A DNA stretch of 64,000 nt, taken from positions 154,330 through 218,329 of the forward strand of contig NMRA01000437.1 in assembly GCA_002633005.1 (NCBI GenBank), read 5' to 3'. The notes beneath the pieces were generated by a model. It was not told the origin of the DNA and did no database searches. It worked only from the letters and a program-made list of their open reading frames with translations. Every line of letters begins with the position of its first letter. Position 1 is the stretch's first letter. Below, piece after piece: positions 441-51,475 of the stretch. The stretch is from Phoronis australis. Taxonomy: Eukaryota; Animalia; Phoronida. The position numbers and the translations under genes are program-made.

Positions 441-922
441 CAGCTTTCCACCAAGGCTAGGTGATACTACGACATCTTTGTTGCATTAGTAACTGGTCTT
501 GGCTAATATTATCATTTTATGGCCTGGTCATCCATTCAGCCAAAAGTAGTTCCAGAAGTGGCTTATCAGCCAATTATTCACGCATGCTGACTCACAATAG
601 AAGCCTGATAAGAGTGAAGGTGGATAAATGCGGTGTTCCTACAGTTTATTGTTTTAGTAGATGTGTTCACGACATGAAGATTGGATGAAAGGTTGAAACT
701 CGTGTCAATTTTATTATTACTGTTTTTCATTTTCAGACTCGAGTCTGGATTGTTGGGGCACATTAATGAATAGTGTACTAATTAAAATAGTAGTAATTAC
801 GGCTAACTTTGCTAAAAGTGAACTTACAACCATAGGTAACATGGGCTTTTGGACGTGTATTGTAAACAAGAATGTTTCATTGTTCTTTTTGTGAAATTTA
901 AGATAATTTACATACTCGGCAG

Positions 923-1054
923 GTTTGTAACCACCAGTGGGATCTGACAGATACCAATGTCGTCTGCCGGCAGCTGAAGCTAGGTCCAACCAATCAGACG
1001 TTTGCTGCAGGGATCCCACCGGGGAAAGAAACAACTCTGGTGTGGATACAGGCA
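923..1054 (+). CDS. Receptor exon: SRCR domain 1, middle part
   Basis: cag| VCNHQWDLTDTNVVCRQLKLG...VWIQA |gtaagt matches the SRCR motif VCxxxWxxxDxxVVCRQL. Confidence 0.9.
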
Positions 1055-13000: not shown

Positions 13001-16000
13001 TTGTTTTATTCTCAAGTGGAAATAAAATGATGCAGTAATACCACCACAGAGCATAAGCTGGAGACATACACAGTGGGACACGGCAGATGTGAAATACTGC
13101 AGCAGAGAATGACAAATGAGGGAGCCAGTGTAACAGGGTAGTCACACAAACAAGTGTAACGTGCGGCGTGACCCTGTTTGCTGCTCATTCAAAACAGGCT
13201 TCTCAAATGCAATCAAAAGGGACTCCAATACTTTCAATCACAGCACATTGGACTCTACGTAGTTAGTTGTTTTCCACAATTTCTTAACGGGTGATTTCAC
13301 GTTCATGACATTGCAGAAAATGATCTTGGATGGCGCCATTTTGAAGATGAATAGATAACCGACGGGAAAGACTGCAAACCGTTTGACCAATGTAACATCG
13401 TTTGACATTTAAACTAAGACTTTGTTCATAGGGCATACAAACCCGTAAACAACCCTACATTGGGCAACGGGGCAGACTTTCGCTTTAGAAATGTTATTTT
13501 CGTGAGTATGGCAGGAGTCCCTTTTGACTGCATTTGATTTTGTCTTGAATGAGCAGCATACAGGGTTGCCCACACATGACACGTTTGTGCCTGAATTTTC
13601 TGTTACCCCTTTTCATTTGTCATTCTTTGCTGTATTTCACACCTGCCATGTCCAGCTTATGTATGTCTCCAGCTTATGCTCTTTGGTGGCTTTGCAATGT
13701 CATTTTATTTCCACTTGAGAATGAAATGAGTATGGTTCGAAATATTGTGTACCTTTTAATCATGTCTCTTGGTCAGTTGCTTCACCAATGTTCCGTTGAG
13801 AGTGGAGTTTTATTCCGAGCGTACGAGCAGACCGGCGTGTCGTGTGTTTAATCAATTTTGCATAATTATATCATGCAAAATATATAGGAAAAGCTTAAGC
13901 TAAATGAATATGACCAATGAGCTAAGTAATGCTAGTAAGAAAATGTAGAGTCTTGCCTCCTGGTGATGAGATGTCACAAAGTGGACATAAATCCAATGAG
14001 CTAGTCTACACAGAAATCAGAATTAGGGATTATCGAATGGTGGTCTCGCGCATTGCAGGGAATTGAAACAAGACATGTCAGTATGATGTATCACATAAGA
14101 TAAGACAATTTTTAAAACATCATAGAGAAAATGAATGCTACGTCTTGTGTCTTTCGTCCAACACTACGTGTGGTCCTTGACGATATGAACAATGACTTGT
14201 TTTCACACTGAACAATGCAGAATTAATTATTTACATACATCCCGACTTATTTTGAAGAAATTGACACTAAATAACACTTGAGCTAGCACAACATTGCTCT
14301 AATTGATGTGTGCCGAAATTTCTCATAATTCCTCTCAGCGTTCGCTATGAGGAGATGTTTTATCTGAGATATTTTTGCTTTTCTCATAGCGACTCTCCAA
14401 GACTCCAGTTCCCACCCTCCCTCCTCTACGTCTACTGTTGCTCCAGTTCCTACCGCCATTAAAACCACCTCCGGCTCACCAGAGACTTCTACGTCTCCCA
14501 GCATGTCTAGCACACTCAAGACTTCTCATACCTCTGAAGTTTTTAGCCCTACCGACGCTTCCACTATCGTAATAACATCTGCTAGTGCAAGTTCTGGTAA
14601 AACAACAGTTAAAATCATGGAAGTTTTTACAACTGAAGGTAATTGTTAGTTCTATACCATGTGAAATTTTTGCTCTATTGGCTCAGAGATTGCCAATGTT
14701 AGCTGACAATTTGCACGACTGCTGTCCGACCATCAAGCTGCAGGGATGATGTTTGCTTTCCTGAAGAAGCTGTATACAGTCACATCCCAAAATACTACCT
14801 GTTGCATCTTTACCTATAACAGTACTGCAGATCTCAGCGACTGAATTCTGTCTTGACGCGGGATGGTTGGTCAATTTTCAATGATGCGAAACCGATGTTA
14901 GTCCAGCATGCTATAACAACAATCAGTGAACAATCTATTTGAAATGTGACAAGAAATCTGCAGATCATCAGGAGATTGTTGGCTAGTAATAAATAACAAC
15001 TAGTGGTCTGTAAGGCCAGGTGCAGTTCATCGGTTTTCGATTGAACTAAGCAAAATGAAATTTATGAGTGTGCATTGAAATTTTGTTCTTTGACAGCAAA
15101 TAGTCTTTAAAAATTATTTCAAAGCAAGTTCTGGGCACTCACTAAGGTGTCAGTTTAAACCTTGTTTGGGTTTTGCTCTCGTTGTGTTCCCATTGCAAGT
15201 TTCCCAAAAAAAATTCCACTCAGTGTTCGGTATTTGAAGAATCTGATGTTTTATTTGAGATATATTTTTACTTTTTTCATAGTCGCAACCCGAGAAACCA
15301 GTTCCCACCCCCCCTCTTCTACGTCTACTGTTGCTCCTGTTCCTACCACCCTTAAAATCACTTCTGACTCACCAGAGACTCCTACAGCTCCCGGGATGTC
15401 TAGCACATCCGAGACTTCTCAGGCGTCTGATGTCTTTACTACCACTGAAGAACCTAGCTTAGTTACCTCTTCCACTGAAGGTTCTGGTACTACGTCAGTT
15501 AATGTGGGAGATTTTACCACTGAAGGTAACTGTTTGTGCTTTATCAGGTGAAACTGTCAGTGTATTGGATCAAAGTTTATTTGGTGGTAATCAAAACTGT
15601 TTGGCCAATGTAAGCTAACAATTTGTTCATTCTCTCTCAATTTAGAGCAGCAGGTAATTAATTGTATGTTTTTCTGAAGTCGGTGAGTCTGCCACAATCT
15701 CATTCCAAAATACTAGCTACCTGTTACCTCTATGTAAACACTAAGTTTGTGCAGATCCCACATTTTAATGATGCAGAACCGGTCACGTTAGGTCAACATG
15801 CCATAACAACAATCAGTAGACAATGTGTTTGGACATCGCCTGGATGTTTTTACAATGACCACCTGTTTAAAATCTGGCAACTGTCTGTAGAGCGTCGGGA
15901 GATTCTTAGCTAAATGAGAACCAACCGCTTATGTCCAACATTATGGCAAGTGAAACAGTCCATCATTTATTTTCAACTGAACTATATAAAGTATATAAAA

Positions 16001-19000
16001 GTTAAATTTTACACGCCTATTTCTGACTCTGCTTTAGTTTTTTTGACAGAATAAACTTTGTCGCAGCAAGTTTTGAACACTCGGGTGTCATTTCAAACCT
16101 TAGTTTAGTATGGTTTTGATTATTATGTGCCCAAGTTTCTCATAAATATTCCACCAGGTGTTCAATTTTTTGAAGATGTTTAATTCTGAGATATTTTCTC
16201 ATAGTCACATCCCAAGAAACCAGCTCCCACTCTCCCGCCTCTACTAATTATTGTTGCTCCAGTTCCTAGTACCCTTAAAACCGCTTTTGGTACACCAGAG
16301 ACTTCTGCGTCCACTGTTGCTCCAGTAACTACTGTTCTTCAAACCGCTTCTGGTACACCAGAGACTTTTGCGTCCACTGTTGCTCCAGTAACTAATGTTC
16401 TTCAAACCACTTCCGGTACTACAAGGAGCTCTACATCTCGCGGGATGCCTAACACTGTGAGGACGTCTCGTATCCCTCATACCTTAACACCTACTGAAAC
16501 TTCTAGCATAGTTACTAGTGCGGAGTCTGCTACTGCGGGAGCTAACAAGGCATTTTTTACCTCTGAAGGTAACTGTTGATGTGTTAACATGGTGTAAACC
16601 CCTCCCTGTGTTGGCTGACAGTTTACTTGGTGTTAATCATAAACCATCAGGCACATATTGGCAAACTGTCGGTCTTACTGATCACCAAGCTTCAATTGTA
16701 TAAAGTTCTAGTAACCCTAGGACTGATGGGGTTTGTGGCGCATGCATTACTAAATAAATGAAACATTTGTAACCTGCTAGCAAAATTTCAGTCCTTTACA
16801 AAAGTGAGCCATTTAAAGTTTCTGATGAAAAAATGCTTTTAATTATTTTAGCTTACAGTTTACAACTTAGTGATTTGCACGCGGACATCTTAGTTCTGCA
16901 CCGTTCAGGACATTCTAGTCTGCTCTGCTTACGCTCACTATTTGCTTGCTTTAATCACGTCATTTTGACATTTTGTACCCAGTCAAGTAAAATTAATATG
17001 CCAAAATTAAGAACAGTAAAGTATAAAGTATGCCAGATGTATGTGGTGTAGCTATAAATAAACTGAGCACTTAGAAAATTTATAACATGGTCATTGACCT
17101 GGTCAGTCATAAAATTATCTTAACTCCCCAGTAACATACAGTGAGTGCAGCCTGTGGTGACTTGACAAATCAAAAAAAGTCCAACACTGTGAAAATGTGG
17201 CTGTATTTCTATTCCTACAGTGTATCTGTGGGTCCAAACCACGTCATATCTGTGGCAGGTACGTCATCACTTAACATGGGAATAGCCCACAACAAAGGAA
17301 AATTTAGAGGTACGATTGTCCTTCATCCAACATCCATTAAAGCATCATGGAAATGGAGGGTGCGCAGTGTGTCGACATTACAGAAAGAATATTCAGGCTT
17401 GATACCTGAACCAACTTAAGGTTGATCTCTGCCTGATGAATGCAACCCATAATCAGCAATTAATGTTTAGTACCTGAAATAGTTGGCTTTGCATAAGCCT
17501 TGAGATGCATAAACGTTCTTGAATGAAACCACTGGTAGTTAGTTTTAGCACCAGAATGAAATTGGTGTTGTACAGATTGGTGGACTAACAACGTCAGAAG
17601 AAAATAACACCTGAACAGTAGATTAGTTCGATCTGTAGCATGTATTGCCCTTTAGTTTGCATGCAACGGTAATCAAATCTGAATCACCTGAGATTAAACA
17701 AGCATGTCAACATTATCATCTTCAATATTCCAAACAACTAACAAAACGGACATACATAACTAGCCTTTTCTTTACCATCACCTTGTTTGTTTATGTAATA
17801 GGTCTTCCCAGTACGTCATGGGTGTCTCAGAATCGCAGACCTCAAAAACACAGAAACTGCAAATCTCGAAAGTGCAAACCTCGAAAACACAGGCCTCGAA
17901 AACACAGACCTAGAAAAGGCAGACCTCGAAAACACAGACCCCGCAGACCTCGAAAACGCAGACCCCACAGACCTCGAAAACGCAAACCCCATAGAACTCG
18001 AAAGCGCAGACCTCGAAAACAAAGACCTTGACTTTCAATCGGGATTTGCTAAAACTGTCGTCCTAGGCTGTCATAAGCAGTACTGTTTTGCATGTGTATT
18101 TTTTCCGTTCTCTGTACGTTTCAATTTATTTCTTATAAAATCTGTCAGTATAACCATGAGGGGTTATTTAACCTTCACTTCTCATGACGGCGTTTTCCCG
18201 TTCAGTGACTTTACCAGATGAAGGGGGTCTTGAGCCTCTGATAACATCTAGTTTCTTTGTTAACTGCCAAGCACAATCTTTTGTCTGTTATGACAACATG
18301 CAGGCCAATTGTCTACCAGGCTTATTACAGACCACCTGTTAACACAATCAATCTCAGAGTGAATTAGTTCATTGGGAAAGAATAGATTATCGTAACTTCC
18401 GTTGCACTTGGGCGATTTTGGCGATTCAAAAACTAGACATGATCACCATTTGACTAGGATTTCAGAAATGCTGTTGGTTTATGTTCAAATATGTTGTAAC
18501 TTAAGTTTTATTTTTAACAGCACAGCCCAGTCAGGCCAGATAGGATCTTATTGAAGATTAGCAATTATTGAACAAAAGAGAGTTGGCTCTCCAACCATGA
18601 ATGCCAGAATGGAGTTAATCAGGCGTGTTTAAGATAGTGGCTACAGGGGTAAACTTCCCAACTTGTTGTTGGGCTATAGCATCCAAAAAGTTGGGAGCAA
18701 AGGGAAAACGCCACTGTAATGTTGGTTTTAGTTATCTAACATATTATGTAGGTGCCTATTTTAATTAGCTCCGTTTGTCCAGGCATCATGCCAATATTGA
18801 GTGTATCTGACCTGTTCAGGGCCCTCTAGTGGCTGTTGCCTTATTTACATCAAATTTTTAGCTTCTTTCTCAGAACGCTTCAGTGATCGCCTTGAAACAG
18901 TTATGGCCCTGTTGATGATAATTGCCTGACTGCTGTTCCCTCTAGCGACACGGTTAGTTTTTTTATGCTTGCCTTAAGAACTGCCATCAGTTGATGTGAA

Positions 19001-22000
19001 CTGTAAGTTTTTCATTGTCTCCTGAAGTCAGTTTAAAAATATAAGCTCATTTACTAGGGGACAAGTTGACTAAAACATTCCGTCAGCGATTGAGCACCCA
19101 TGTAGCTTGTATTAGTTGGCTGTACACGGGAGACAAGTTGACACCTTTAAGGTCACAGTTCAAAGGGGGGGGGGTTTGTGCTGTCAGTACGGATGTTGAT
19201 AGACTCCTTGATATTACGTGAGTGCCAATTAAAGTGCCAATAATGTTCTCGTTCTCCATGGAGATGGAATGGCCGCTCACGATCATGTGTTCATTGACAG
19301 CAGACGTTAATCCAGTTTCGTAATGCTCTTTAAGCCTGAGGTGTCCATCTTATGTATGTGTGCGGGGGGAGGGGTCTTGGTCACATGAGGTTAATTATAA
19401 CACCATCCTGTTTGCCTGCAGGTGTAGTGTCTTCACTTAATTTTACCAGTTTATTACGTAACGTGTTTACTGGCTGCATAAATGAATTTATGGGGTGTGC
19501 AATATAGGTTCGACGAAGCTGTTCTGATAGACGTTTTACCTATATAGGGTATAGCCAGAGTGGGTCCATCAGTGGGTTCATGTTGTCTTTGATGTGGTCT
19601 CTGGTGGAATATCCAATCAGGATTACTTCAAAACTGTCGTAATATGCCTCGCCCCCTAGTAAGTGAGCTTTCAATTATATTCTTAACATCTGCAAAGTTC
19701 TTTGATGATATAGTTTCGAAATTTGACACAGATTTAATGTTTCTAATATCAAGAAAAAGACACCTTCCCTTTTTCAGTTGGACCCTACTTGTACTACAGC
19801 TCTTTAGTCACTGTCTTATCAGTTCGGATGAGCTTTCTTTCTGCTAAATACTTGAAAGATTTTCATGAAATCTGAAAAATGTCCCCAATCAGAATTTTGC
19901 GTCTACTTGAGTTGGTAACTATTGGGCTCCTTCACGAATTTGTACTATGGCATGGCTGTGTTCTCAATTAACAAGTACTTAATGTGAGACATACTATGTA
20001 CGCCAAAAGTAATCAGCCAAAATACTGTTTTCCTGTCATGACGGTCAATTGATAATCCGTTAATAGCAAAAAATGACTGGTATTATGGTATCAATATAAT
20101 TGTAATTACAAAATGACTTAGATACCGTGCTAACTTCCCTCACTAGTTCCCTCCATTCTCAGTCATGCAGGATGACTACTCCTGACAATGAATTTACCTT
20201 CCGCTTAGTCGCCATGACTGGGAATTCCAGGTCATTTTGTGTGAATACTTTTGGCTAGTTGTATTGCATGCTTGCCATCTGTTTTGGGCTGATCTATTCA
20301 TTAAGTACATCTCAGGATGATTATTTTACCAAGCATTCAAGTTGTCGTCCTGCTGATAGGTCAGGCGTTGCTTACATGCATGCTGATCATGGCTTGAGAT
20401 GTGTACATCTGCAGTAAGCTCAGGTGAAGCATGAAATGAACGTCCTGTTATTTTAACGTTTTCCTGGAGTTGCCTCTATTCCTTAATAAAGCTTAATATT
20501 CTTCCTAACTTCTTGTGTCTTGCTGGTGCTTTCCAATCTGGTTAATTTTAATAGGTATTCGGGCTGCTTGTCAGTTAATGTCTTGAGGTCACATCATACG
20601 CTATGAATTTTAGAATTTGTAGAAATATTTAGATGTTTTGACCTTTTTGTTGCCTTGAAGGGGTGGGATTGAAATTGAACTTTTCAAACTTTAGGTAATT
20701 ATTTCAACTGATATGGTTCAACATAAGAAGAAATCCCTGCTAAAGTTTTACTGTTTTGGATGTCAATTAGCTCGCACTGCATTTAAACGTATGCCCCATG
20801 GTTATGCAACACAGCAATGCACTCTGTTGGACTATAATCACAAACTCTTGCATTACACCTTAAACAAAATGGTTCAAGTTAAAAGCCTTTATTAGCAAAA
20901 TCAAACAACTGATAGATAGTATTTACGTGTTATTATTTACTAGATTCAGTGAGGGACTGTAATCGAATTTTGAGTGTGATATAAATGATTCCGATGTGGA
21001 TAACATCACCCAGGTCTGAGGTAGAGTCTTATTGGTTAGCTGGGCAGTTAATAGTTAAGCGTGATTGATCAATAAAGAACATTAGATGCTGAGCCACTCC
21101 CATCATCCATATCAATTGTGTGGTTGGCCTGTTTGTTATGAAGGGTTCGAGACGATCAAAATCTGACGATTGTTGCTAGCTAAGGAAAATTTTGGATCCT
21201 TAACTTTACAGTTGTTGGAAAACTAACTTATACTGCTTGTTGTTCAAGGGAAAGTGACTCACTTTGAACACCTTTTAAAAGAACTAAATTGTTAAACATT
21301 GGACAGCAATTTGGTGAAAGCTTATCATAATTCTTTTGATGGCATCCATTACCTTAGTCAATGGGTCACAAGCCAGCTGTAACGTAATACTAGCGACTGA
21401 ATTGCGACAATGGCTGCTCTTAATTGGCTTTGCCGGTTCTGCCTTGTCAAGCGGGGTCGGTATCTGATAGGTCTGTAAGCTGGAATTTGTCATCGAAAAC
21501 CAATCAGATGTGTTAGTTGGATGACATAGAGGAGTCCGCAAGGTCAGTCAACTGTGTGTGTACCCATGCAATGAAGCATCTGGGCCTTAGCGAGACACTT
21601 GTCAAATGTTTAAAATTTTTAATTAGCAGATGAGACCGGCTAGTTCTGATTGAAACACATTCTGCTTTCTGCTTGTGTACAATGCACATGTAGCTCGTTA
21701 GATTGCGTTTACTCTCACTGACAAATGAATTCTGGCGACACGCACGTGCTTGCTTACTCACACACACAGATGCACTTCAAACAAATGTCACGTGACAACA
21801 ACATGTCCAGAGATTTTTTTCTCGGGTTACTATTTTTATTCAAGCATTCAAGTTGCCATTTCGCGGATTGCAAGGTACTCAGTTGTCGAGTTTTCGCCCT
21901 GGGCTTTATGCACAATTTTCTGTAAAATGATCGTAATTTAAGAGCAAAGTTTGATAGCAATGCTCCACAATTTTGTAGAAAGTCTGTCATAGGTTACAGA

Positions 22001-25000
22001 TACGTCACAGAGCGTAAATATGATTAATCTTAACTTCCGATTTCACCCGTTTAGGAGACCGGGTTTCAACAGCCATGGGTTACAATAATCGCCTCCATGA
22101 CACCAATTTTTTCTAAGCGCCCTGGGCGGTTATTAGGGTGAATACGGTATCCTAAATTTTAGTTCACTCATTCAATGAAAACTTAATAAGTGTATTTTGA
22201 AAACTTGACTTCTTGCCTATGAACTTAAATAACTTTTTGCCCAAAAACCTATTTTTGTATGGGAGTTCTAGTACTGTCATGAAAATTTCTGCCTATGGAA
22301 ATACTTTAGGCATAATCTAAATGGGTTTTGATGTGATAAGGCTTCTTGACGCTCTCTAACCATTCTACAATCTTAGGTGCAAATATGGAATCAAGGAAAA
22401 TTGATATTAATGATAATGTTAGTGGTAGTATACTATAATAGCTCACTGAGTCAAAAATTTCAAAAATAAAGAAAAATTTCAATCATTAAAATTAGCACAT
22501 GATTACCTACAGGCTTGCTTGAAATTTTGACTAATGTAGCCTCACTTCATAATAATAATAAAACCGGATAATGATGCGTAAAATGACTATCAATTGCCTT
22601 CAGCCTCTGTTAGTACTAAACTGCCTTCTACTGTTCCTACAGGTACTTCTCAATACCCAGCTGATACTTCTACTGCTGCAGAAACCGATAGTGGTGAGTG
22701 TTTTGCCTGCTAGTACCATACAGTGCTGCTCTGCCTAGAATACAAACTTAGTACACGGAAGGTAATTCATTTAAAACATGCATATTCCAGGGCACCTTGT
22801 ATTTCGTGTTGAAACAGGCACATGTGGATTGCACAAAAACAGCTTCAGTCCATGGCATACTGTGAATGCTAGTAGGTTCCTTTTGGTGAAGCTGAGCAAT
22901 GACTTCTGTGGTACTAAACTGTGTGTGCTGTTGGATAAAAGATTTCTGGGAACTTGTAATAGACCAAGTCGATATCTCATTTTGAAACCTGCTCTTTTTC
23001 TCTCTCTAACTCTCTAGTTGAGACTAAATGTGAGATGTTTGTAATATCCTAGAGCTTGTGAAGTTGCAGTAAGTTTTGATCAAAAGTGTTTTGATCGTCG
23101 GTGATTTGTCACATAATTGTAAGCACTTTCCAGTCTCTTTCAAAATCAAGTTGTTGATAAAACAACTTTTAATTGAACAGTTTCAGGTTTTGCTTGCAAT
23201 TTTTGTCTCAATAAGTGGATAAAATTTAAGTCATCTCTTGGTAAGGCAGAGAATTTCCAAATTCATGTATCAATCTAGTTCATTGCTACGTGTTATTGCA
23301 GTCTTCGTCCCAGCATTGTGTCTAGCTCTTCAATTATGCACCTTGGCGATTCAGATAATTGAAACCCAGTGGAAATGCGTATTGATGATGAAGCAGTATT
23401 TCTCTCAAACATGTATTGTTGTGAATAAACACCCAAGATAGCTTGAAGTTGGAAGTGTCATGATGACAAAGCATCTTGTTTCATATTAATTCATCCACTT
23501 CAACTTACTGGAATTGTTATGAGTGTTAACGATGACGTTGACATTTGACTATTGCGAGGTTTTTCTACAGGTGGAGCCACAAGCACCATTATACCTCCTG
23601 ATGGTGGAGGTGTTACTACTACCTTTGGAGCTACTACTGTACAAGGAACTGGTAAGTTCGCATTATGAGTGCGTCTCAATTAAGGTAATTTGTTTGTGCG
23701 CACCCCGGATCACACACAGAGCTGGGTGCAGGCACCTCATTATCTGTGGTTCATTAGATGCCCACAGTCGGAAAGCCAAAAGGTCCTTTCATATTAACTT
23801 AACTTGAAGCCTGGATGTGATGGAGGAAGTTAAGTGAACCGTTCATACCAGCTTCAGTAGATAACAGCGTGGAAGTAAACAGTGGGTGACGCTGTCATCA
23901 TTGAAGTAATCGTAAGGTAGCGCATCCCGTGCGTGCAAAGATTTTTACAATGTGACGATTTGAGAACATTTACACGTGCTACTTGACATATAACTTATTT
24001 ACTCGAACAAAATGCAAGCAACTATTGGCGATGACACCCCACTTTTATTGTTGACGATAGTTAAGTGGCCCCTGGTGATAACTTCCATGAGATTGAAGTT
24101 TACTGTTCATACCACACTGCAGCGTTGACGCTTCGCTGTTAAATCCACCTGTTCACTGTGAAGTTAACTGGTGCGGTTAGCATCAATCCATAACCGAAAT
24201 TAACTGTTCAAACTGAACACAACTCCCCAAAACATCGACGCTTCAGCATTAGTATGAATAGGCTTTATGAATGCCTGTTGCTGGTTGGTATAACAAGATT
24301 TGTTACTGACTGCAACCCCCAAAACATTGGCACATCGATGTCAGTATGAAAGAGTCTTTAGGATGTGATCAGCTCAACAGTCAGAGTAATTGGTATCTGG
24401 TAAGATGGACACCACTTTCTGTTAGAGGTAGAGTTTGGTGACAGGACAGTCAACAGAATACGCACACTTGATTGAGGATGTGTAGTTATATACTAGGCAC
24501 ACATTGCCCTAGTGCATGAGTCTAGATCGTTCTATACGAGTCATCTGACGTTTTTGAAGAACTTGTGACTGATGGTGTTGGTCTTGAAGCAAACAAGCAA
24601 GAAACTGTACTACCCTGGGTGTCACATGTGTGATAAATTGCATTATTTATGAAGTTCAACTATGTATTTTGTGGAGGTTCAAAATTATACTGAAAAGGAA
24701 TTAAAAACAATTATTTTGACTATTTACTGAACTTTTAATTTGGATTATTTATTGGTATAACACTGATTTTAAGTTGTTCCTTAGTCAGATCAAAAGTGAT
24801 TTCTGACCCTTATCACAGCTTGAAGGTTCTTGGTCCATAAACTGTCCTGCCAGGTCAATTGATCCCAATTAACAGCAATATCACATTCCAAGTCAAGAAA
24901 TCATGCATCTAGTGCCGAGTAACGGCAAATGGTCTAACTTGAAACTATTTTTGAGAGTGAAAAGTGCATTAATAGCGGTATTGAGGCTTTTTGTTGAAAC

Positions 25001-28000
25001 GAAGGATGTTGTGATGTTTGTTGTGAAAATTATGACTTGAAAGAAGCAAGTCGTTAGTGCTACAGGAGCAGTAAGGTGTCTTTTGCTTGACCCAATTTCT
25101 AATTCTGTTGTTCGTGATGGGTTGAGTTGACAGGGACGAAACGCAATTTCTTTCATTCATGGACATTTCGTGACATTGGTCATTTTGTGTGTGAATTGTT
25201 AAATCATTGTTATTGGCACATGCTCGTTATTGTTGTTGGTAACTGAATAATAATTATATGAACTGTGGTCAAGTTTATGTCTGCTGCAAGGCAATGTTCT
25301 CACGGAGCATGCAGCTTTGTGCTCACAACGTTTTACATTGTGAACATGGCAGTTTTTTATACATTTGACAGGAAACGTGCCATATCTTTACACATATTAC
25401 ATTCTGCCAGATGGCAGATTTTCTACGCGAATTACAAGCTTTTTACACGAATGACACATTTTTGCCATGTTTGAGATGCTTTAAGCTTTAAATGTAGTAC
25501 GTGTGAAATTCTCACCTGGGAGTTTTGCAGCCATTTTTGCCAAGACCGTGCCTAGGACTTTGATTAAACGGGCACCAGAGGGTGTGGTATGTGTTAGTAT
25601 TAGCTGTTAGTGTTAACTGTATATTGTTGGTTACACTGTAGTTGGAGAATAGTGCAATCTGCTGCTGCTGAAGTGAGTATCAAAAACAGGTGTGGGATCG
25701 CAATAGCAGCACTGTCAGATGTGATGTGTGATGAGTTACAAAGTACTTAAATTTATTATTTGCAGGTGGCAACGAGTCTGGTCAATCCGTTGGAGTTATT
25801 GTTGGTGTCCTCGTTGGCGTTGTTGTATTAGTTGTAGTTGTGGTGATTATCGTGTATGTCATCAAACGACGCCCGTGTCCCACGTTTAAGAGGTAAATTA
25901 GTTAATCATTCTTCTAGAACATCTTAAATGTACTTGCCTCAATGTACCATTCACAGGTCAGTCCCTAGTTAGGGAATCTCCAAGGTTGAATGGCATAAGG
26001 ATGCTGTTTTTAGGGTTGGCAAAAAGATTTTGCCTCGGAAATTGGGCCCCCTCAGAACATGCTAGATCTGCCAGTGGTAAGAAAGATGGTACACAGCTGA
26101 AGGTTTGAGTATTCTTGCTTCAGTACCACAAGTATGACAGACTTTAATTAGTACTCCTCAATCTCATTACGTTGATTGTTCTGTCTTATCACTGGATTTT
26201 AACCTGTGTGGTGTTGTAAGCAAAATGACCGTGAAGCAATCTTAGGGTACTCGTGTAGGGACTTTAAACTGGACACGCTGTTATCATTGATTTGAGCGGG
26301 CTCGTCCTTCAAGAGAGCAAAAATTGAAAACAAACATTTCAGTTAATTTGGGAACTCGTAATGTGTGACAGCCTGAACATTGCATGTCTTCTGCAAAACA
26401 AAGACTTGCAATTTGCTAAGGAATTTTGATCATCCCACGTAGGTGAGTTATCTATTCAGGATGGTCGGTCATGACGAAATTGCGTGTAATGCTCAAGTTG
26501 AACTGGAACCCTAACGTATCATCATGTAAAATTTTGGAATATCACATCTCAGAAATGGCTGATCATATACTTTATGAAAAAATTCAGATTCCAGGCTTTT
26601 ATGCATTATTCCCCATAATTCTTTTAGGAATAATTGTTTTTAAAGTGTTCTCCTTTTGCTTGATGGACTATCAAAAAAGGACTTACATGATTTCTTTGAA
26701 AAGCTCAAAAACTGTACAAAACCAAAAATAATGAAATGATGATTTCAAAAACTGTAGTGTTTTTTTAGATTTCATCTTGAATTCTTATATTTAATGAAAT
26801 TTTGTCATGTTGTTGATACCATTGTTTTGCTATGGGTGTTCCATTCTTTTTAGTGAATTTTTCTAAAACGATATAGTCGTGAGACCCATTCAGTATTAAG
26901 TCAAAAATCAAATAATTTCTAAATGCTTTCTATTCTTTGTAGACATATGGCTTAATACACTGACTAGTCTATAAGGTCCCACGTTGTATTAACAAAGTGC
27001 CGTTGCTTTATGAGAGAAGAATGAACACAATTGTGCTTCAAGCAATCCAATGTAATTTTTCTTGTCGTGGAGTTAAAATCATTCCATAGTTTTGTAAGTT
27101 TTGCTAAATACATAAGCTAGTCAATAAGGTCTTACATAAGTAACTTTTTCTATGAGGGAAAAATGAACATAATTTTGTTTCAAACCATTTAATGTAATTG
27201 TTCGTCTGAGTAGCTTAATATGATTCTGTTACTTAAATGAAAGCAGCTTCCTTGCATTCAATAAGGAAAGCGTTTCGAACTGCTTGGGGGGATTGGGCTT
27301 GAACGAGGGGCTTGTGGAAAGCGCTTTCATTTTTGGTGACCATTTGTCAAGCTGCATCGTCAACAAAACCAAAATGGAAAGCAGACTGTTCATAAGCGAC
27401 GTCCAATAATTTGAAGCGTTCGCAGGAAAGCGCTTTCATTTTTGGAGAGTGTTTCTCAATCTGCATCACCAACAAAACCAAGATGGAAAGCAGGTCGTTC
27501 ATTAGTGATGTCCAACAATTCGAAGCGCTTTCCTTATTGAATGCAAAGCTGTTTTTTGTAAAGTTTTAAACTATTTTGCCAATTTAGGACGGATTCATGA
27601 TGCCATGAAAATGCCAGTGTTGCTTCATTTCCTATTAATTTGTTCCCTAGCAACCGTGGATCACCTTATGCTAGATCGGGAAGCAAGAACAGTCCTTCAA
27701 GGGTACACTATGAAGCTGGTGCAGACGACGTTGGCTACTCCAATGGATATGTGAGTTCCATTATGCACTACATCTCATTTTGCAGCCGGCAAAATGGAAT
27801 ACTTCTTAGTTGTTAGGATTTGAATAGCTAGATACTGCAGCACTTAGATGGAATTTCTGTCCGACATCTTTTCTTTTGCATTAAGTTGTTGTCTTTGCAA
27901 ATTATACCCCTTGGTTTTTAATTGGTATTCCCCTGTCTTGCCGGATAAGGGAACAATTGAAGTGGATGCCAGTGACAGCATTGCCTAAATTACATTCAGT

Positions 28001-31000
28001 GAAGGATGTTCTTGATGCTGCATGCCATAAAAACTCTGAATTCAACATTAAAAGTTGAGTCTGCAGAGATTGATTGGTTTTATGGTAAGTCAAACCACCG
28101 TAGAGCTCTGTAGAAAGGACAGTGCTGGAGAAGCAGTTATTTTTTAGGTAATTCGGAGTTCAGTGCTAGAAAAACTACTGAAGGATGATGTTTCCACTGC
28201 TTTGTGGACGATTCACAATCAGAAAAACATATCGCAAAAACATCCCATGTGTTCCAATGGCTTCATGGGCCCAGACTGAAGTTTTGAGGGGTTTCACACA
28301 ATGCAAGGCTTGGCCTCAATTGATGTGTGGTGATTTTATTTTAAAAAAATGAATTAAAATCGGTACTGCTGGAGATTGATTTCAACTGCATAGTGATAAA
28401 CTGTCAGGGGAGATATGAGAGGTGTGGTGGCAGTGAGGAGACAGGAACAGTCAGACTTGCACAGCCAATGACACGACAGCCATTTTTGCTATTGGCATAA
28501 GCGCTAGTGAAAGGCTGGCACATTAAGTCACCATGGAAACGCGGTGTTAAGGGGGGGCGTTAAAGACAACTTCTGTCAAAGAAATTAACTGGGGATTTAG
28601 ACTAGTTACGGGTATAAAATTGGAATTGACTTGTTCCTCACTCTGAAGAGAAAAGATTTTTGTTCTTGCAAAAAGTGACAGTTCATTATTTCTGGAGACA
28701 TTGCGCAGCAAATAAAGTGAAACGCCATGACAGGTCAACTTACAGACTGTTCTGTAAGAGCAAACCACCAGTTCTTTCCAAGTCCAGAATTCACATCTAT
28801 TTTGACCGAGGAACATTTTGAGATGTATTTAACAGCAAGTAGGCTTAAGTCAAATTTTTTTGAAGGAAAGCGAGTTTACTGTCGTTTTACTTGAGAAGAG
28901 TTCTGACTACCATTCTGGGTTTACCGAGATACTTAATAAAAATTAGGCGCTTTGTAATATAAATGTGTTATCATGTTGGATGTATTAATAAAATGTTTTT
29001 CCTGGGAGCTATTGGTTGTTTTTCATATTCTAAGTGTGTCAGAGTTTTTTAAAAGGCACAAAAGTTAGGTAGAATATCTCAGTTGACTCTGATGTTAGAG
29101 AAGCCGTGGGTCTGTTCCCTGAAAAGCGACCAAGCCGTGGGTCTGTTCCCTGAAAAGCGACCAAGCCGTGGGTCTGTTCCCTGAAAAGCGACCAAGACTT
29201 GAGACAGAAAATTGTTCTTATCCTCCCAATTCATTATTAGCGCATCATTGCTGGAAATGATTTTTACAAATTTTTTAGCGAGTAGCAGTTATGTTTATGT
29301 TCTCGGATACTTTGTTGTTTTGATAAATTGAATTAATAATTACTTTTCAGAAATAGTTGTGGGCAACTTAAGAACGAATTTCTGTCTTATATCATAGATC
29401 ACTTTTCATGAGGTATACCCCTGCACTGGATTTTTTCAGACTCTAGGTTAATTGACTCTCTGCAAGCTTCACATTCTCTTCACTTTCAACTCGTGCATCT
29501 TTAGCTGAAGTCTACACATAGTAAACAATTTTCCTTTGTTTTATTGCAGTATCATAACCCAGATCTTTTGGTGAATAGTAACTTGGTGGATCGGCAACCA
29601 TTTGGAAGTGTCACCAACAGAGCTTTTGATCCAAACGAAACATTAGGTAGGATAACTCTTCAGTTATTTGGCTTAAAAACAATTTTCAGTTTGTATTTTT
29701 AAGGCAAGAGTGCCACAGTGATAGTTCTTCATGTGGTGTTTGCTGACCATTGTACAGTGCACACTATCTATTGTTGCTATTGAGATAATTTTTCTTTTAT
29801 CTTTGTTGAGTATTGAAATTTTAAGTGACTAAGTAAATCATCAATGTTTGTAAAAGATGATAGCTTAATCCATTGCAATCGACTCGTTCACATTTTGTTC
29901 TTGGACGGGATAAACTAGTCTGCATAGTAGATTAGAATTTTGCAGACCCTTGTAAATCTTGGGTGTTATTCACACACACACAACAGGAGTTTTGAAAGTG
30001 GCTTGCAAGGTCAGTGAAAGTAGTTCTTTGTGAACCCTTCTCTGAGTGGAGAACTCTGTCCCAGTTTGACTGCGTAACTAAACAAGGCTTAGCAGAAGGT
30101 TTATAGTCCTGGCCCGAGAAGATAATTGTTTTACTACCCCCTTTGTATAGCTGAATAGCTAAGCCCAGAACGTTATTTGAAGTCCTGTGGGAACAATTTT
30201 CAATATTTTGTTTGAAGTCTGTTGTAATCTTTTTTGACTTAAAAAAATTGGGGATTCATTCTAACGTTTGACTTTGAAATGTTTTCATTATGTGCCAGTG
30301 TTAGAGCTTACCTGGAAGGATTACGCTGTGTGAGAAGTGTGTTTTGCATGTGAAATGATCACAAGTAATTTCTGGCTTAACTGGCCCCAGAAGAAAGATT
30401 TCACAGGAAATTAGGGTAGTAAGGGGTATCGAAATAGTTTCTTTCATTGCACCCAGATATTCTTATGTGGGTGTTCTTTGCTGCACTGTGTTTAAACTAA
30501 CTTATTAATTTTTGTAGATGCTGATGTGAGAGAATTCTTGGAAAGATTGGGCTTTGAGCAATTTGTTCCTGTATTCCAACGGGAACTGATCACAAGTAAC
30601 ACTCTGGCTAAACTGACCCTAGAAGATCTCACAGGAACTTTAGGTAGGGGAGTAAGGGTCAGCGACGGTAACACTGTCTGAACTAGGCCATTGCTGGCAC
30701 CGAAGGTAGCCATCACGTAATGGTGCCATAAGGTTTTGTTCCCGAAGCACCACCCTTTTGTTGAGAGATAACTACATAAACCTAACCCTTTTGTTACTAA
30801 GATAATTCGATATTTTAAGTCCATTAAACATGAAAAAAGGCAAGAGAGGGGTCATGTCAAAAATGAGACAACATGTTTTACAACCAAAGTTTCTGACCCT
30901 TTTGTGTGTAGTTGGAAATGGAACATGTTGTAGAGTTTAACCAACTCCCAAAGTGAACCCTTTTTTAAAGAAATTAATTAAAGCTGAATGGCTCCTTTTT

Positions 31001-32087
31001 TGGTAACTTTGTCTGAAAAGGCACCCTTTCATATGTAAACTGGTCATGAAAAATCAACCTTCTGATTATGCAATGAGTTCCATATACCTCTTCTGTTGGA
31101 TTGCCCACAGCTATTAAATTGATAATTGTTACCATGTCTGTGTATTCGTTTTTATCATTATCCTCAAAATTGTACTCTCCACCTCAGTGTGTTGTGTTTA
31201 ATTCAAAATGCACATCTTTGTCCATGCCAGGTATACCACTTGGTCCAAGCAAGCGTATGATGGAAAAGATAGCTGACATGGCTCCTTATGAAGAGGCCGA
31301 GTTTCACAGAACGAACCAGGGAGACTACACTCGACTTCGTGATCCAGCGTACCAGCAGCTGGACAGGTCACGAACTGGCCAACAAGGGGTGTATTCATCC
31401 ATACAGCCGCCATTGTACCAGAAGCTGTCGAAACCTGGAGACACTGCGAGGGCTGAGTACTCTACCCTGGACCAGCATGTGTATCAGAAAACAGACAGAC
31501 AGAAGAAACACGGTTCACACTATCAATCCTTGAACTATGGAGAATATTACGCCGATGGTAGTAGCACCATTGGCCATAGCACTGGTGAGACAGAAACTGG
31601 AAGACTACCAGGAGAGGTGTATTTGGATGTCCCGCTCTATATGGAGACCGATCTCCATGACGCACATTCAAAGGGCGCCTACACGGAGGTGGGAAGTTTA
31701 TATTCATCTGTTGCTGAGCCACGTAATCACTCCAAGGATGATCCCATGAGACAGGGGAGCACTGTAAGTTTGATTTCACAATCCAGTGTTGCCTCTAGTG
31801 TCACCGCTGGTATACCAACAGAACCGCCTATCTATTTCCATTGTCCAATCACAAATGAGATCATGCAGGACCCAGTAAGGGCAAGTGATGGACGTACATA
31901 CGAGCGGTCGTCAATTATGCGTTGGTTGAGTACGCACTCAACATCTCCGGTCTCCAAGCGACCCATGACGGATAAGTCCCTGGAGAGCTGTGTGGAGCTG
32001 AAACGACAAATCAATGAATGGAGGAAACAGAGGTCAAAGATGAAGCTAGGCCGACCTTCGACCCCTATCACTGGCATTGATTGTTAA
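923..32087 (+). CDS. Multi-exon type I membrane receptor: SRCR-SRCR-CUB-mucin stalk-TM-SAM-Tyr-motif array-U-box (5' end not found in window)
   Basis: Exons 923-1054, 1336-1438, 2689-2916 (or copy 3527-3754), 5003-5188, 7068-7226, 9510-9605, 10646-10747, 12007-12048, 14390-14638, 15283-15525, 22604-22693, 23571-23651, 25766-25892, 27651-27750, 29550-29646, 30518-30643, 31231-32087. All introns are GT..AG with matching phases. The exons sum to 3018 nt (1005 aa + stop) with no internal stop, and domain motifs continue across junctions. No signal-peptide or first-SRCR-half exon was found in 1-922. Confidence 0.85.
1336..1438 (+). CDS. Receptor exon: SRCR domain 1, C-terminal part
   Basis: tacag| VACSGNEERLTECSHSGFGNAHCTHNEDVAIACG |gtaagt is the classic CxGxExxLxxC...CxHxEDxxxxC pattern. 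Six Cys in total indicates group A SRCR. Confidence 0.92.
1660..2310 (+). mobile_element. Degenerate copy of the Helentron-like non-autonomous element family seen at 33691-34888
   Basis: Shares ctgtatctcc.aaacc and ctagtggcaattt motifs and the 3' end gtgggcgcat..tca..gct.cgc.tt..ctctt. Confidence 0.55.
2689..2916 (+). CDS. Receptor exon: SRCR domain 2 N-terminal half (copy 1)
   Basis: ttccag| EPTTPNDIRLVNGTDSSNGILEALFNDTWLPVCKRGFDIKILNVVCRQLGF...ASCE |gtaata; 228 nt, phase 1-1. Confidence 0.8.
3527..3754 (+). CDS. Receptor exon: SRCR domain 2 N-terminal half (copy 2, possibly the allelic haplotype)
   Basis: Near-identical to 2689-2916 (I/T change in GFD[I/T]K plus silent changes), with intact splice sites. 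Confidence 0.7.
5003..5188 (+). CDS. Receptor exon: SRCR domain 2 C-terminal half plus Pro-rich linker
   Basis: ttctag| GVEEKLSECPGHSWFFENEYNFGGRFPMPNECYHNREQGIVC TNEPSQPPAASTPSPPGISG |gtgagt. Confidence 0.88.
7068..7226 (+). CDS. Receptor exon: CUB domain part 1
   Basis: ttgcag| YCRPY...GSIYSPKHPDTYDFDLICTWRV...IKVVID |gtaaga matches the CUB motif GxIxSPxxPxxY...CxWxI. Confidence 0.88.
7471..7965. mobile_element. Non-autonomous DNA transposon (hAT-like MITE)
   Basis: 13-bp perfect TIR CAGGGCTTGGAAT / ATTCCAAGCCCTG flanked by a 6-bp direct repeat AACTGC (7465-7470, 7966-7971). Confidence 0.8.
8700..8822. repeat. AT-rich minisatellite, 23-bp unit ATTAAATTAAGATAGATAAATAG
   Basis: About five partly degenerate tandem copies. 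Confidence 0.85.
8905..9170 (-). mobile_element. Penelope-like element 3' fragment (GIY-YIG C-terminus)
   Basis: Minus-strand translation HNYSRRTRWIWEAYHIKKQGASYVNRDMGEHALPDSY matches the R...EA..I......NRD.G...L...Y tail of Penelope endonucleases. Confidence 0.7.
9510..9605 (+). CDS. Receptor exon: CUB domain part 2
   Basis: ttccag| AFSTEEYRDKLEVFDGWSEHHPKIASWSGEIS |gtatgt matches the CUB pattern FxxE..DxLxxxDG...G. Not in the supplied ORF track. Confidence 0.85.
9820..10490 (+). mobile_element. L1/Tx1-type LINE 3' fragment (C-terminal zinc-finger region), frameshifted
   Basis: RILTTNSFL...DDDSCSFCRQSKETLIHLFLECETVNSFW (CxxC...ET..HLF..C...FW), followed by (GT)n and an AATAAA/A-rich tail. 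Confidence 0.75.
10646..10747 (+). CDS. Receptor exon: CUB domain part 3
   Basis: ttccag| AGTTVTTNSSSCFFKFVSDHALSRSGFKLSYTSS |gtgagt matches the CUB C-terminal FxSD...GFxxxY. Confidence 0.88.
11010..11505 (+). repeat. Intronic repeat homologous to ~18180-18715
   Basis: Colinear similarity, e.g. ctttgttaactgcc.agcaca.tcttttgtc, catttgactagga.ttcagaaatgct.ttggtttatgttcaaat and cttcccaacttgttgttgggctatag. Confidence 0.8.
12007..12048 (+). CDS. Receptor micro-exon, Ser/Thr stalk
   Basis: tttcag| GVVTTQGPPSTHTS |gtaagt; 42 nt, phase 1-1. Confidence 0.7.
12845..13862. mobile_element. Foldback/MITE-like element with ~350-bp imperfect inverted arms
   Basis: ~12845-13230 is the reverse complement of ~13515-13862, e.g. 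aactgaccaagagacatgattaaaaggtaca versus tgtaccttttaatcatgtctcttggtcagtt. Confidence 0.8.
14390..14638 (+). CDS. Receptor exon: mucin-like stalk repeat A
   Basis: catag| TTLQDSSSHPPSSTSTVAPVPTAIKTTSGSPETSTSPS...VFTTE |gtaatt; 249 nt, phase 1-1. Confidence 0.75.
15283..15525 (+). CDS. Receptor exon: mucin-like stalk repeat B
   Basis: catag| VATRETSSHPPSSTSTVAPVPTTLKITSDSPETPTAPG...DFTTE |gtaact; 243 nt, phase 1-1, paralog of repeat A. Confidence 0.78.
16205..16568 (+). pseudogene. Mucin-like stalk repeat C, frameshifted pseudo-exon (or sequence error) with internal 63-bp repeats
   Basis: Same splice contexts as repeats A and B (catag| ... GAAG|gtaact) but 364 nt (3n+1). One extra base near 16245-16250 gives TAG at ~16267. 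After correction it reads IVAPVPSTLKTAFGTPETSASTVAPVTTVLQTASGTPETFAS...FFTSE. Confidence 0.7.
17820..18031 (+). repeat. Minisatellite of ~15 bp (AGACCTCGAAAACRC)n reading as poly-RPRKH
   Basis: More than ten degenerate units visible, preceded by an in-frame acceptor (aatag|GT CTT CCC AGT) at 17801/17802. Confidence 0.8.
19190..19620 (-). mobile_element. Penelope-like element fragment (linker + GIY-YIG), decayed
   Basis: Minus-strand pieces LAIPYIG..SEQLRRTY, DTTPAGKQDGVI and HLRLKEHYETGLTSAVNEHMIVSGHSISMENENIIG occur in the expected order. Confidence 0.7.
21830..22150 (+). repeat. Dispersed repeat, copy 2 (homologous to ~130-440)
   Basis: Same shared blocks in the same order as 130-440. Confidence 0.7.
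22604..22693 (+). CDS. Receptor exon: Ser/Thr stalk
   Basis: ttcag| ASVSTKLPSTVPTGTSQYPADTSTAAETDS |gtgagt; 90 nt, phase 1-1. Confidence 0.75.
23571..23651 (+). CDS. Receptor exon: Gly/Thr stalk
   Basis: ctacag| GGATSTIIPPDGGGVTTTFGATTVQGT |gtaagt; 81 nt, phase 1-1. Confidence 0.78.
25766..25892 (+). CDS. Receptor exon: transmembrane helix and stop-transfer
   Basis: ttgcag| GGNESGQSVGVIVGVLVGVVVLVVVVVIIVYVI KRRPCPTFK |gtaaat; ~25 hydrophobic residues followed by a basic cluster. Confidence 0.92.
27244..27551. mobile_element. MITE with ~35-bp TIRs and an internal ~108-bp direct repeat
   Basis: ttgcattcaataaggaaagcgtttcgaa ... ttcgaagcgctttccttattgaatgcaa, with the internal ggaaagcgctttcatttttgg...caacaaaacca..atggaaagcag present twice. 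Confidence 0.75.
27651..27750 (+). CDS. Receptor exon: juxtamembrane cytoplasmic segment
   Basis: ccctag| SNRGSPYARSGSKNSPSRVHYEAGADDVGYSNGY |gtgagt; phase 2 to 0 fits both neighbours. Confidence 0.8.
29101..29196 (+). repeat. Perfect 31-bp tandem repeat x3 (AAGCCGTGGGTCTGTTCCCTGAAAAGCGACC)
   Basis: Three identical adjacent copies with no spacers. Confidence 0.95.
29550..29646 (+). CDS. Receptor exon: cytoplasmic segment
   Basis: ttgcag| YHNPDLLVNSNLVDRQPFGSVTNRAFDPNETL |gtagga; phase 0 to 1 fits both neighbours. Confidence 0.78.
30518..30643 (+). CDS. Receptor exon: SAM (sterile alpha motif) domain, N-terminal part
   Basis: ttgtag| DADVREFLERLGFEQFVPVFQRELITSNTLAKLTLEDLTGTL |gtaggg continues as GIPLGPSKRMMEKI in the next exon. 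Matches the SAM consensus V..FL..LG...(Y/F)...F....I....L..LT.EDL..LGI.LG...(K/R). Confidence 0.88.
31231..32087 (+). CDS. Receptor terminal exon: SAM end, Tyr-motif array, U-box E3 ligase domain
   Basis: gccag| GIPLGPSKRM... The U-box PPIYFHCPITNEIMQDPVRASDGRTYERSSIMRWLSTHSTSPVSKRPM...LKRQINEW lies at ~31824-32030. Stop TAA at 32085-32087. Confidence 0.92.
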
Positions 32088-32928
32088 GGATTGGATCTAT
32101 ATCATTTTGTACTTTTGCATTGAAATGAAGCTTTTTAGCCTCAAGTGGAGAGCTTTTAAATGGAGACTGCACCAATCCTAATTGTGTCAAAATGTATTTT
32201 GCGGAACAATCATTCCAGCTGATATTCAAGTATTCTTATAAATACTCAAGGTTTTTCACTTTGTTGTATTTCAGTGAAACAATGCCTATTGGTGTAAGAG
32301 CTTGTATTTACATATACATAACTTTTGTATAGTGTGTTATTTTTCGTTTATGATTTATCTATTTCGGAGAGTTTATATTATACTTATAGATCGTTGAGAA
32401 GGTGTTTAAACATGGTCCAGAATTGTTTGGGAGACAGTGTATCATTTGTTGCAGACTGTCATTATCAATTCCATAGGAATCGATTTCATGAGCTCCAGTG
32501 GTTTCGTTTTTTGACATCGCCATTCTGAATGAATGCAGTTTTAAGTAAAATAAATCAAAATATCTGTCAGTGTGTTGTTTCAACGTTCATCGGAACATGC
32601 CCCACTTCATTGCTTTCAACCCTTTGACTCAAGTGAGTCAAACTCAAGTGAGTCAAATGCTGTTTTTATCAGATAAATACTTATATGCTGTACTGATAAA
32701 CGTATGTCTCTGTAATTGATTTTTAGTCAAAATTGTTGTAACCCTTCGTGCCATATGTTAACAGTTGTCGAATGACTACTGGTCGCACAGTGTTGATAAC
32801 ACATATAACCATATATATTTTTATTTTTATTTGTATTCAGATACATGTATTGTTCTTATTTGGAATTCATATCCATATTTTGGTATCAGATAATGTATAT
32901 TCATGTTTCTCTTGGATTGTTGTTGTTG

Positions 32929-32934
32929 AATAAA
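32929..32934 (+). promoter_or_regulatory. Candidate polyadenylation signal of the receptor gene
   Basis: AATAAA followed by T/GT-rich sequence ~840 nt after the stop. An alternative AATAAA lies near 32549. Confidence 0.4.
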
Positions 32935-33690
32935 TTTCTTGTCTCTAACGTAATTTGGCATTTGCTGTATATTATTTTATGAGACAATTTCAGCTGATAC
33001 ATGTATGCAAGCATTTATGTGTCAGTGAGTCCTCTTAAATTTCTCCTGTTTACTCTACCAGTGCCTTGATGTACAGACTGCCTGTTGTATGTACTACATA
33101 CAGTACCTACGGTAGGTACTGTACACTGTATGTAGCACTCCAATATATTGTATTAGTTTGAGGTTTATTTATTTCTGAGAGTACAGTATTACTATATAGA
33201 TTGATCTGGAGATGTTTAGATATAGTTGAAATTAATCTGGGCATACAATGAATGGCTTGTTGGTTACCACCATTATTACTGTCGTATGAAATTGTGCAAA
33301 AATTTGGCTATTGGCTAATCTGTTATTGACTGGCTAAACACCAAAAAAGAATTTTTGTCCATGTTCGTGTTGAATTTTTAACAGAAGTGCTTTATATAGG
33401 TTCTCACGTTGTGTTGCACTGTTTATTTCGCTAGTTGTATATTCATTTCACTCATTGCTTGATGATGGTACATGTGGTCTCGAAATATAACTAGTATTTT
33501 AACTTATTTGTCCGTTATGTCTCTTGGTGTTTTGATTCATAGCTGCACGCCTGAAGATAGGAGATTGCTTAGAGACTAGGAGCGGTCTGTATTAAACTGT
33601 CAAACAAAAAGTACAGTCCTGTCTTCAACAAACTTTATGTTATGGTATTTAAAAACATCGAATTCGCACTTGCAGGATCCAGAGTTTTCA

Positions 33691-51300: not shown

Positions 51301-51475
51301 TTTGCAAAATATTTCAATTGTATTTGTAGGATTCCCTGATGGCGACAAGACAAAGAACTGTTTGAGAATGACGTCATACTCGTACTACAAGAACAAGTGG
51401 GATGACCAGCCGTGTGCACACTGCTTCAGGGATTTTATCTGTGAAATGAAAAAGCCGGGAATGAAAATGAACTAA
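48359..51475 (+). CDS. Secreted C-type lectin with N-terminal coiled-coil neck (260 aa; exons 48359-48995 and 51330-51475)
   Basis: Signal peptide MKTACILLLTIFVFRLSA, then a helical heptad-like region. CTLD reads CPSDY....GCYKF...W.EARRRC...GAHLVAIETESE...WLGGSD...EGRWLW......YTNWRK|GFPDGDKTKNCL...KWDDQPC....DFICE. Phase-1 GT/AG intron, TAA at 51473-51475. Confidence 0.92.

Follow-up and report, generated by a model that had tools for sequence, protein, structure and literature searches.

Introduction

The canonical ITAM (immunoreceptor tyrosine-based activation motif) is YxxL/I-x6-8-YxxL/I (PMC12058738), of which CD3gamma carries YQPL-x7-YSHL and CD3delta YQPL-x7-YSRL (PMC10681901), and the definition applied to Hydractinia uses a spacer of x6-9 (10.1101/2022.03.04.482883). 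The hemITAM is defined by a triacidic stretch ahead of YxxL (PMC12582321), and the loose consensus of the ITIM (immunoreceptor tyrosine-based inhibitory motif) is [I/L/V/S]xYxx[I/V/L] (10.1101/2022.03.04.482883). ITAM-like tails are common among the receptors of invertebrates; the tail motifs of Drosophila Draper act through Src42A and Shark (PMC8092387, PMC13578246), and homologs of Syk/Shark and SHP have been reported from Hydractinia (10.1101/2022.03.04.482883) as well as from amphioxus and oyster. The total number of receptor-type E3 ligases is described as uncertain (PMC12458338). Proteins of the layout SRCR-CUB-(transmembrane, TM)-U-box have already been listed, without study, for two Acropora corals, and this layout has been published only in the form of a listing. 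Here we describe a spliced and expressed gene in 64,000 nucleotides of the Phoronis australis genome (contig NMRA01000437.1, positions 154,330 to 218,329, forward strand; hereafter the window), the product of which has the domain order SRCR-SRCR-CUB-mucin stalk-TM-SAM-tyrosine array-U-box. The array of tyrosine motifs is likely, judging from its sequence, to be a phosphotyrosine docking site in the cytoplasmic tail of this receptor.

Tyrosine motifs between the SAM domain and the U-box

The original prediction, made from the sequence letters, described a 22-residue tandem array of paired YxxL/I motifs with spacers of 4 and 10 residues, followed by further tyrosine motifs and two sites of ITIM consensus. 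Frame +1 of 31326-31712 carries the motifs as quoted, with the x4 and x10 spacers. The repeat part comprises YTRL (31326), YQQL (31350), YSSI (31392), YQKL (31416), YSTL (31458), YQKT (31482) and YQSL (31521), and the distal part YLDV (31620), YTEV (31680) and YSSV (31701). The first seven tyrosines lie 8, 14, 8, 14, 8 and 13 residues apart, corresponding to spacers of x4, x10, x4, x10, x4 and x9, and the 22-residue period is exact twice. As a caveat on the repeat, the third unit ends in YQKT, which is without a hydrophobic residue at +3. Both SxYxxL/V sites, SHYQSL and SLYSSV, were also present and match the loose ITIM pattern.

The tyrosine array is a genuine feature of an expressed gene. 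The 182-residue linker between the SAM domain and the U-box, in which the array lies, consists of 70% disorder-promoting residues and includes 15 Tyr, 1 Phe and no Trp; a single-sequence fold of the last exon, with a mean predicted local distance difference test (pLDDT) score of 36.8, was uninformative on disorder. The juxtamembrane cytoplasmic part contains 5 Tyr, none with a hydrophobic residue at +3. An artefact of assembly or frame was ruled out, as an RNA contig (X1) spans 31229-32280 with 7 substitutions and no gaps. Frame 1 of the reverse strand over the array region has many stops.

The motifs are in excess of what composition would give. L, I or V occupies +3 of 9 of the 15 linker tyrosines, a count equalled in 2 of 100,000 composition shuffles of the linker, and L or I occupies +3 of 6 of them (39 of 100,000). 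Three evenly spaced tyrosine pairs arose in 84 of 20,000 shuffles. A lag of 22 residues gave the top ungapped self-alignment with a score of 64, which none of 3,000 shuffles equalled (mean 26.7, standard deviation 4.7, maximum 60).

Between the repeat units, 5-7 of 22 residues agree, as do 28-29 of 66 bases and 6-7 of 22 third codon positions, the last being near the 27% mean of other lags. The duplication is therefore old. Tandem Repeats Finder (TRF) found no tandem array at this repeat, and the residual DNA repeat is a single 18-nt copy pair at 66-nt spacing. All six periodic tyrosines and the 22-residue register have been retained despite the decayed third codon positions. This is suggestive of selection; it falls short of proof, its tyrosines being what drew attention to the repeat. 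The alternative, that the array represents an internal duplication in decay within a disordered spacer, with tyrosines of no special role, appears very unlikely to us. It would account for the low likeness of the units, the loss of the +3 residue from the third unit and the lack of any ortholog found to show conservation. It does not account for three more YxxV motifs outside the repeat, for the excess of motifs over shuffles, or for tyrosine columns and register that were kept when third codon positions decayed. Moreover, at least four such motifs within 200 residues ahead of the U-box were flagged in 1 of the best 150 matches of the HMMER search given below, many of these proteins having shorter upstream parts.

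Gene structure and expression

A path through 16 exons is one open frame of 849 residues, with a cytoplasmic tail of 402 residues; the 5' end of the gene lies outside the window. In the tail, the SAM domain occupies residues ~76-134, the motifs residues 150-278, and the U-box begins at ~316. The last exon, 31231-32087, encodes the end of the SAM domain, the linker with the array, and the U-box. RNA evidence came from three stranded runs of one study and the contig set of a second study, and 15 of 30 rows of joints were viewed for the tail and 15 of 39 for the upstream part. By way of GT-AG sites, this RNA evidence connects the TM exon with two cytoplasmic exons and, beyond them, with the SAM exon and the last exon; the upstream joints connect two SRCR domains, the CUB domain and the Ser/Thr stalk. 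Ectodomain and tail are connected by overlapping RNA joints through the stalk (12048>15481, 15525>22643 and 22693>23571), and no single contig covers the whole gene. The product is a type-I receptor in which a single chain comprises the ectodomain, a lone TM helix and the E3 domain on the cytoplasmic side, the region of the signal peptide being outside the window. Coordinates are collected in Table 1.

Table 1. Features of the Phoronis receptor gene in the window.
Feature	Position	Strand	Evidence
SRCR domain 1, exons ~904-1054 and 1336-1438	904..1438	+	Pfam SRCR above cutoff, both exons
SRCR domain 2, exons 2689-2916 and 5003-5188	2689..5188	+	Pfam SRCR E 4.8e-10 (first exon); RNA joints
CUB domain, exons 7068-7226, 9510-9605 and 10646-10747	7068..10747	+	Pfam; RNA joints
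Ser/Thr-rich mucin-like stalk, several exons, alternatively spliced	12007..23651	+	Translations; RNA joints
Exon of single transmembrane helix, followed by basic stop-transfer stretch	25766..25892	+	Val/Ile-rich translation; RNA joints upstream and downstream
Two juxtamembrane cytoplasmic exons, 27651-27750 and 29550-29646	27651..29646	+	RNA joints; no Pfam match
SAM domain, exon 30518-30643 and start of last exon, 31231 to ~31280	30518..31280	+	Pfam; RNA joint
22-residue tyrosine-motif array, three units and YQSL	31314..31532	+	Motif reading; shuffles; weak Pfam ITAM match
Two intact YQxL-x10-YSxI/L pairs	31350-31403 and 31416-31469	+	Inside the array
Distal tyrosine motifs YLDV, YTEV and YSSV (SLYSSV, loose ITIM match)	31620..31712	+	Motif reading
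U-box E3 ligase domain	31827..32036	+	Pfam; model; Foldseek; stop codon 32085-32087
3' untranslated region, transcribed	32088..33200	+	Stranded RNA depth; AATAAA at 32549 and 32929

In SRCR domain 1 the two exons are linked by the RNA joint 1054>1336, and the start at 904 is from sequence reading only. The second exon of SRCR domain 2 gave no Pfam match. The CUB matches (E 3e-4 for the first exon and 2e-3 for the last) are each slightly under the cutoff as fragments, and the TM exon gave weak Pfam matches to TM-containing families.

Several further observations were made on this gene. Alternative splicing of the stalk involves an internal acceptor at 15481 and a skip from 15525 to 22643. Three stalk exons are related (14390-14638, 15283-15525 and 16205-16568); the last, of 364 bases, meets stops in the phase of its sibling exons, and part of the RNA reads, carrying 11 extra letters, run into it near 16337. 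The first exon of SRCR domain 2 is present twice together with its flanks (2689-2916 and 3527-3754, within 2240-3900 of the window) around an N at 3088, the flanks being 98% alike and the exons different at 3 bases. No joint from copy 1 to copy 2 was among the joints listed, so that the doubling probably stems from haplotypes or from the assembly. Within an intron of the receptor gene lies an open frame on the + strand (17802-18221), the short acidic repeat of which is pentapeptide-like (Pfam Pentapeptide, E 2.4e-4); no RNA joint to this frame was found among the joints listed. Intronic tandem repeats lie at 29101-29196 (31 bases x 3.1, 100% identity) and 27316-27527 (109 bases x 1.9).

SAM and U-box domains and the search for relatives

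The SAM domain scored above cutoff with two Pfam families, SAM_2 at 27.8 bits and SAM_1 at 26.5, and its joint 30643>31231 was present in all four RNA runs. The C-terminal domain has the sequence and the fold of a U-box and is predicted to have ubiquitin ligase activity: it scored 68.1 bits with Pfam U-box against a cutoff of 21.4 (E 7.3e-19), it retained all nine columns that are invariant among 17 aligned U-boxes (this one and 16 others), and its model had a pLDDT of 89.7. Foldseek with this model returned solved U-boxes as top matches, several of them in E2 complexes, with a best root-mean-square deviation of 1.2 A. The U-box starts ~40 residues after the last tyrosine motif. Directly after the SAM domain (31284-31301, + strand), a PxExx-acidic sequence fits a TRAF6-type binding pattern; it is short and possibly due to chance.

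In word-index searches against longer proteins, the end of the SAM domain with the tyrosine region gave none among 535 candidates, and the whole last exon gave 1 among 1,229, an unrelated multi-U-box protein; against proteins of similar length none was found among 368. HMMER against 1.84 billion representatives returned 12,476 matches at E up to 0.001; in the best 150 of these, the top-scoring stretches were centred on the U-box, none beginning before query residue 135. Pfam analysis of 41 of these best 150 revealed no SRCR and no CUB domain. Lookup in the Atlas gave generic U-box clusters (0.84 or lower). No Acropora protein of the SRCR-CUB-TM-U-box layout was recognised among the matches of the word-index, HMMER and Pfam searches. 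Such blanks in the search for orthologs are weak evidence and no proof of uniqueness, the search tools being weak for divergent animal proteins.

The pairing of SAM with U-box recurs outside the Phoronis receptor gene. Two of the proteins matched (P0121 and P0140) combine SAM domains with a C-terminal U-box; in neither did Pfam call WD40 or an ectodomain family. A separate screen of the HMMER matches for SAM and TM segments was weak, as it missed the SAM domains of both proteins and called a SAM helix of P0121 a TM segment.

Spacing of the motifs and proposed function of the array

Two pairs of YxxL/I half-sites are present, YQQL...YSSI and YQKL...YSTL, and since RNA joints lead in a single open frame from the TM exon as far as the last exon, they lie on the cytoplasmic side of a membrane receptor. 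The original prediction held that such x10 pairs may act as ITAMs for Syk/Shark. This finds partial support in the order of the half-sites, which is that of CD3gamma and CD3delta, and in a weak match to Pfam ITAM (PF02189) at 31401-31475 (E 0.16), which covers profile positions 2-20 of 20 and was the sole family returned for the second x10 pair. Membership of the canonical ITAM class did not stand: neither its spacing nor its profile score makes the array a canonical ITAM. The ITAM of FcgRIIA has a spacer of 12 residues. We consider the two x10 pairs best read as putative stretched ITAMs for Syk-family kinases.

Several points weigh against such a reading. No pair has the canonical x6-8 spacer, or one of x6-9, the spacers being 4 and 10; the x9 pair begins with YQKT. 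The Pfam ITAM match, at 12.9 bits, is under the cutoff of 22.2, and four of the five segments scanned, the first x10 pair included, gave no such match. There is no hemITAM, as [ED][ED][ED]xYxxL had no match and at most one acidic residue precedes any tyrosine. The array starts 150 residues from the membrane, behind the SAM domain; the YxxPhi pattern is also that of a sorting signal; no ortholog was found by word-index and HMMER searches to show conservation; and the retention of tyrosines is partly built into the test, the repeat having been recognised by them. The patterns for Grb2 (YxN), PI3K (YxxM), STAT3 (YxxQ), YxxP, NPxY, di-leucine and C-terminal PDZ ligands had no match, and a search of PDB sequences with the array gave one chance match only (E 1.2).

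The main rival takes the 22-residue period itself as the working geometry, so that YTRL, YSSI and YSTL, equivalent half-sites each separated by one period, would bind the tandem SH2 domains of an SHP2-type phosphatase and the receptor would be inhibitory or a scaffold. In PZR/MPZL1, the tandem ITIMs of which likewise have tyrosines 22 residues apart, pY241 and pY263 bind the tandem SH2 domains of SHP2 1:1 in a crystal structure (PMC12415285), and linker length is reported to be critical to SHP2 activation (PMC10231330). The period is exactly 22 twice, and there are two loose ITIM matches. However, any 66-nt duplication also yields a period of 22, and the periodic motifs have G, G and A at -2, where strict ITIMs carry a hydrophobic residue. 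The claim of ITIM-consensus sites in the original prediction survives for the loose pattern that begins with S and not for the strict pattern, as [IVL]xYxx[LV] had no match. On balance, we find an SHP2-type role rather unlikely.

It had also been proposed that the x4 pairs (tyrosines 8 apart) may be a different tandem-SH2 code. We found no evidence for it. The x4 spacing, although kept three times, follows automatically because the x10 unit is repeated at a period of 22, of which it is the remainder; it would be a by-product of unit duplication. The known tandem-SH2 ligand FceRI-gamma has pY64 and pY75, 11 apart (PMC6743456), and others are 22 apart (PZR, PMC12415285) or 32 apart (GAB1 Y627/Y659), a distance of 8 not being met among them, although one modelling paper puts avidity highest with short or flexible linkers. 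That a different tandem-SH2 protein reads the x4 pairs is highly improbable. The three phosphotyrosine-SH2 readings combined are, in our estimate, quite probable.

A further rival does without phosphorylation. The motifs would be YxxPhi signals for AP-2/AP-3, and the E3 receptor would be endocytosed to remove surface proteins in the manner of RNF43/ZNRF3. YxxPhi is a standard sorting signal (PMC2121048) that fits all 9 motifs, and known receptor-type E3 ligases clear receptors from the cell surface (PMC12458338). The alternation of YQxL with YS/TxL and the kept register would remain unexplained, however, and one or two signals are normally enough. We regard this explanation as unlikely.

We return to the stretched-ITAM reading, under which the most likely chain of events would begin with binding of a microbial or cell-surface ligand by the SRCR/CUB ectodomain. 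The SAM domains may aid clustering of the receptor, upon which a Src-family kinase would phosphorylate the array tyrosines. The x10 pairs could then serve, in cis or in trans, as docking sites for the tandem SH2 domains of Syk/Shark, and the distal motifs may add SHP-type binders. Finally, the U-box would ubiquitinate the docked proteins or the receptor itself, by which the signal would be ended or rerouted. Docking of Syk both in cis and in trans is backed by modelling and cell data (PMC6743456), and therefore the limit on spacing may be looser in clustered receptors. For this chain as a whole, from ligand binding to ubiquitination, we put the chances at about even.

Other features of the window

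A neuropeptide-like precursor is encoded at 52724-53308 (- strand), with ~nine short related peptides that end in FG and are flanked by KR, which fits amidated Phe-ending peptides; it had no informative Pfam match. Together with the introns and the SRCR/CUB domains, this precursor points to an animal as the host. A two-exon gene on the + strand (48361-49000 and ~51322-51415) likely encodes a secreted protein with a hydrophobic N-terminus, a coiled-coil-like stretch and a C-type lectin domain (Pfam Lectin_C, E 8.8e-9), its second exon being from sequence reading. Open frames at 39455-39844, 59379-59837 and 61432-62147 look by eye like fragments of retrotransposon-type reverse transcriptase or nuclease genes.

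Comparison with known systems

In the literature search, which covered few subscription journals, no receptor that unites SAM, ITAM-like motifs and a U-box was described, nor any invertebrate ITAM-like receptor joined to an E3 domain. The main text of an SRCR survey of 29 species (PMC10855680) contains no U-box, ITAM or ubiquitin terms, and no U-box, ITAM or ITIM terms were found in PMC13712769.

The Acropora proteins resemble the Phoronis receptor in an SRCR then CUB ectodomain and a C-terminal U-box, with, for A. digitifera, a listed TM segment ahead of the U-box. They differ in that, by domain listings, the only form in which they could be compared, no SAM or tyrosine motifs are given, and SAM occurs 0 times in the readable supplements. 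It is possible, if doubtful, that the Phoronis gene and the coral genes belong to one old family of U-box receptor-ligases in animals. Each such chain would sense a ligand, cluster by way of its SAM domain and, on a dual-register array (14-residue pairs for a Syk-type kinase, the 22-residue period for SHP2), recruit proteins that it then ubiquitinates. Were this true, one protein would do jobs that in vertebrates are split among receptor, ITAM adaptor and Cbl-type ligase.

The ITAMs of CD3gamma and CD3delta share with the x10 pairs the order of half-sites, YQxL then YSxL (PMC10681901, PMC12058738), and differ in a spacer of 6-8 where the Phoronis receptor has 10. The Phoronis motifs, furthermore, are part of the very chain that would bind the ligand, preceded by a SAM domain and adjacent to an E3 domain. 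Should SH2 proteins dock on the array, it would serve as a natural experiment on the extent to which Syk-family tandem SH2 domains tolerate longer spacers. Hydractinia Alr (10.1101/2022.03.04.482883), Botryllus FcoR (PMC12582321) and Drosophila Draper are, like the Phoronis receptor, single-pass proteins with several tyrosine motifs in the tail. Their ectodomains, in contrast, are of the immunoglobulin or EGF/NIM type, no SAM or U-box is described for them in the portions of these sources available, and the ITAMs of Alr are defined by an x6-9 spacing from which the Phoronis array departs.

Among ligases, RNF43/ZNRF3, GRAIL/RNF128 and MEGF8-MOSMO-MGRN1 are likewise type I in the membrane, with a domain outside the cell and an E2-binding domain in the cytoplasm (PMC12458338). 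The latter is a RING, whereas the Phoronis receptor has a U-box together with a SAM domain and a tyrosine array. The tyrosine array taken alone is of modest interest, and it is the whole architecture that carries the interest: if the array docks SH2 proteins, a single chain would directly couple the recognition of patterns to the recruitment of kinases and to ubiquitination. Tyrosine-motif receptors of invertebrates and E3 ligases of the receptor type are both known kinds; what is new here is a SAM domain and a tyrosine array in a receptor-type U-box E3.

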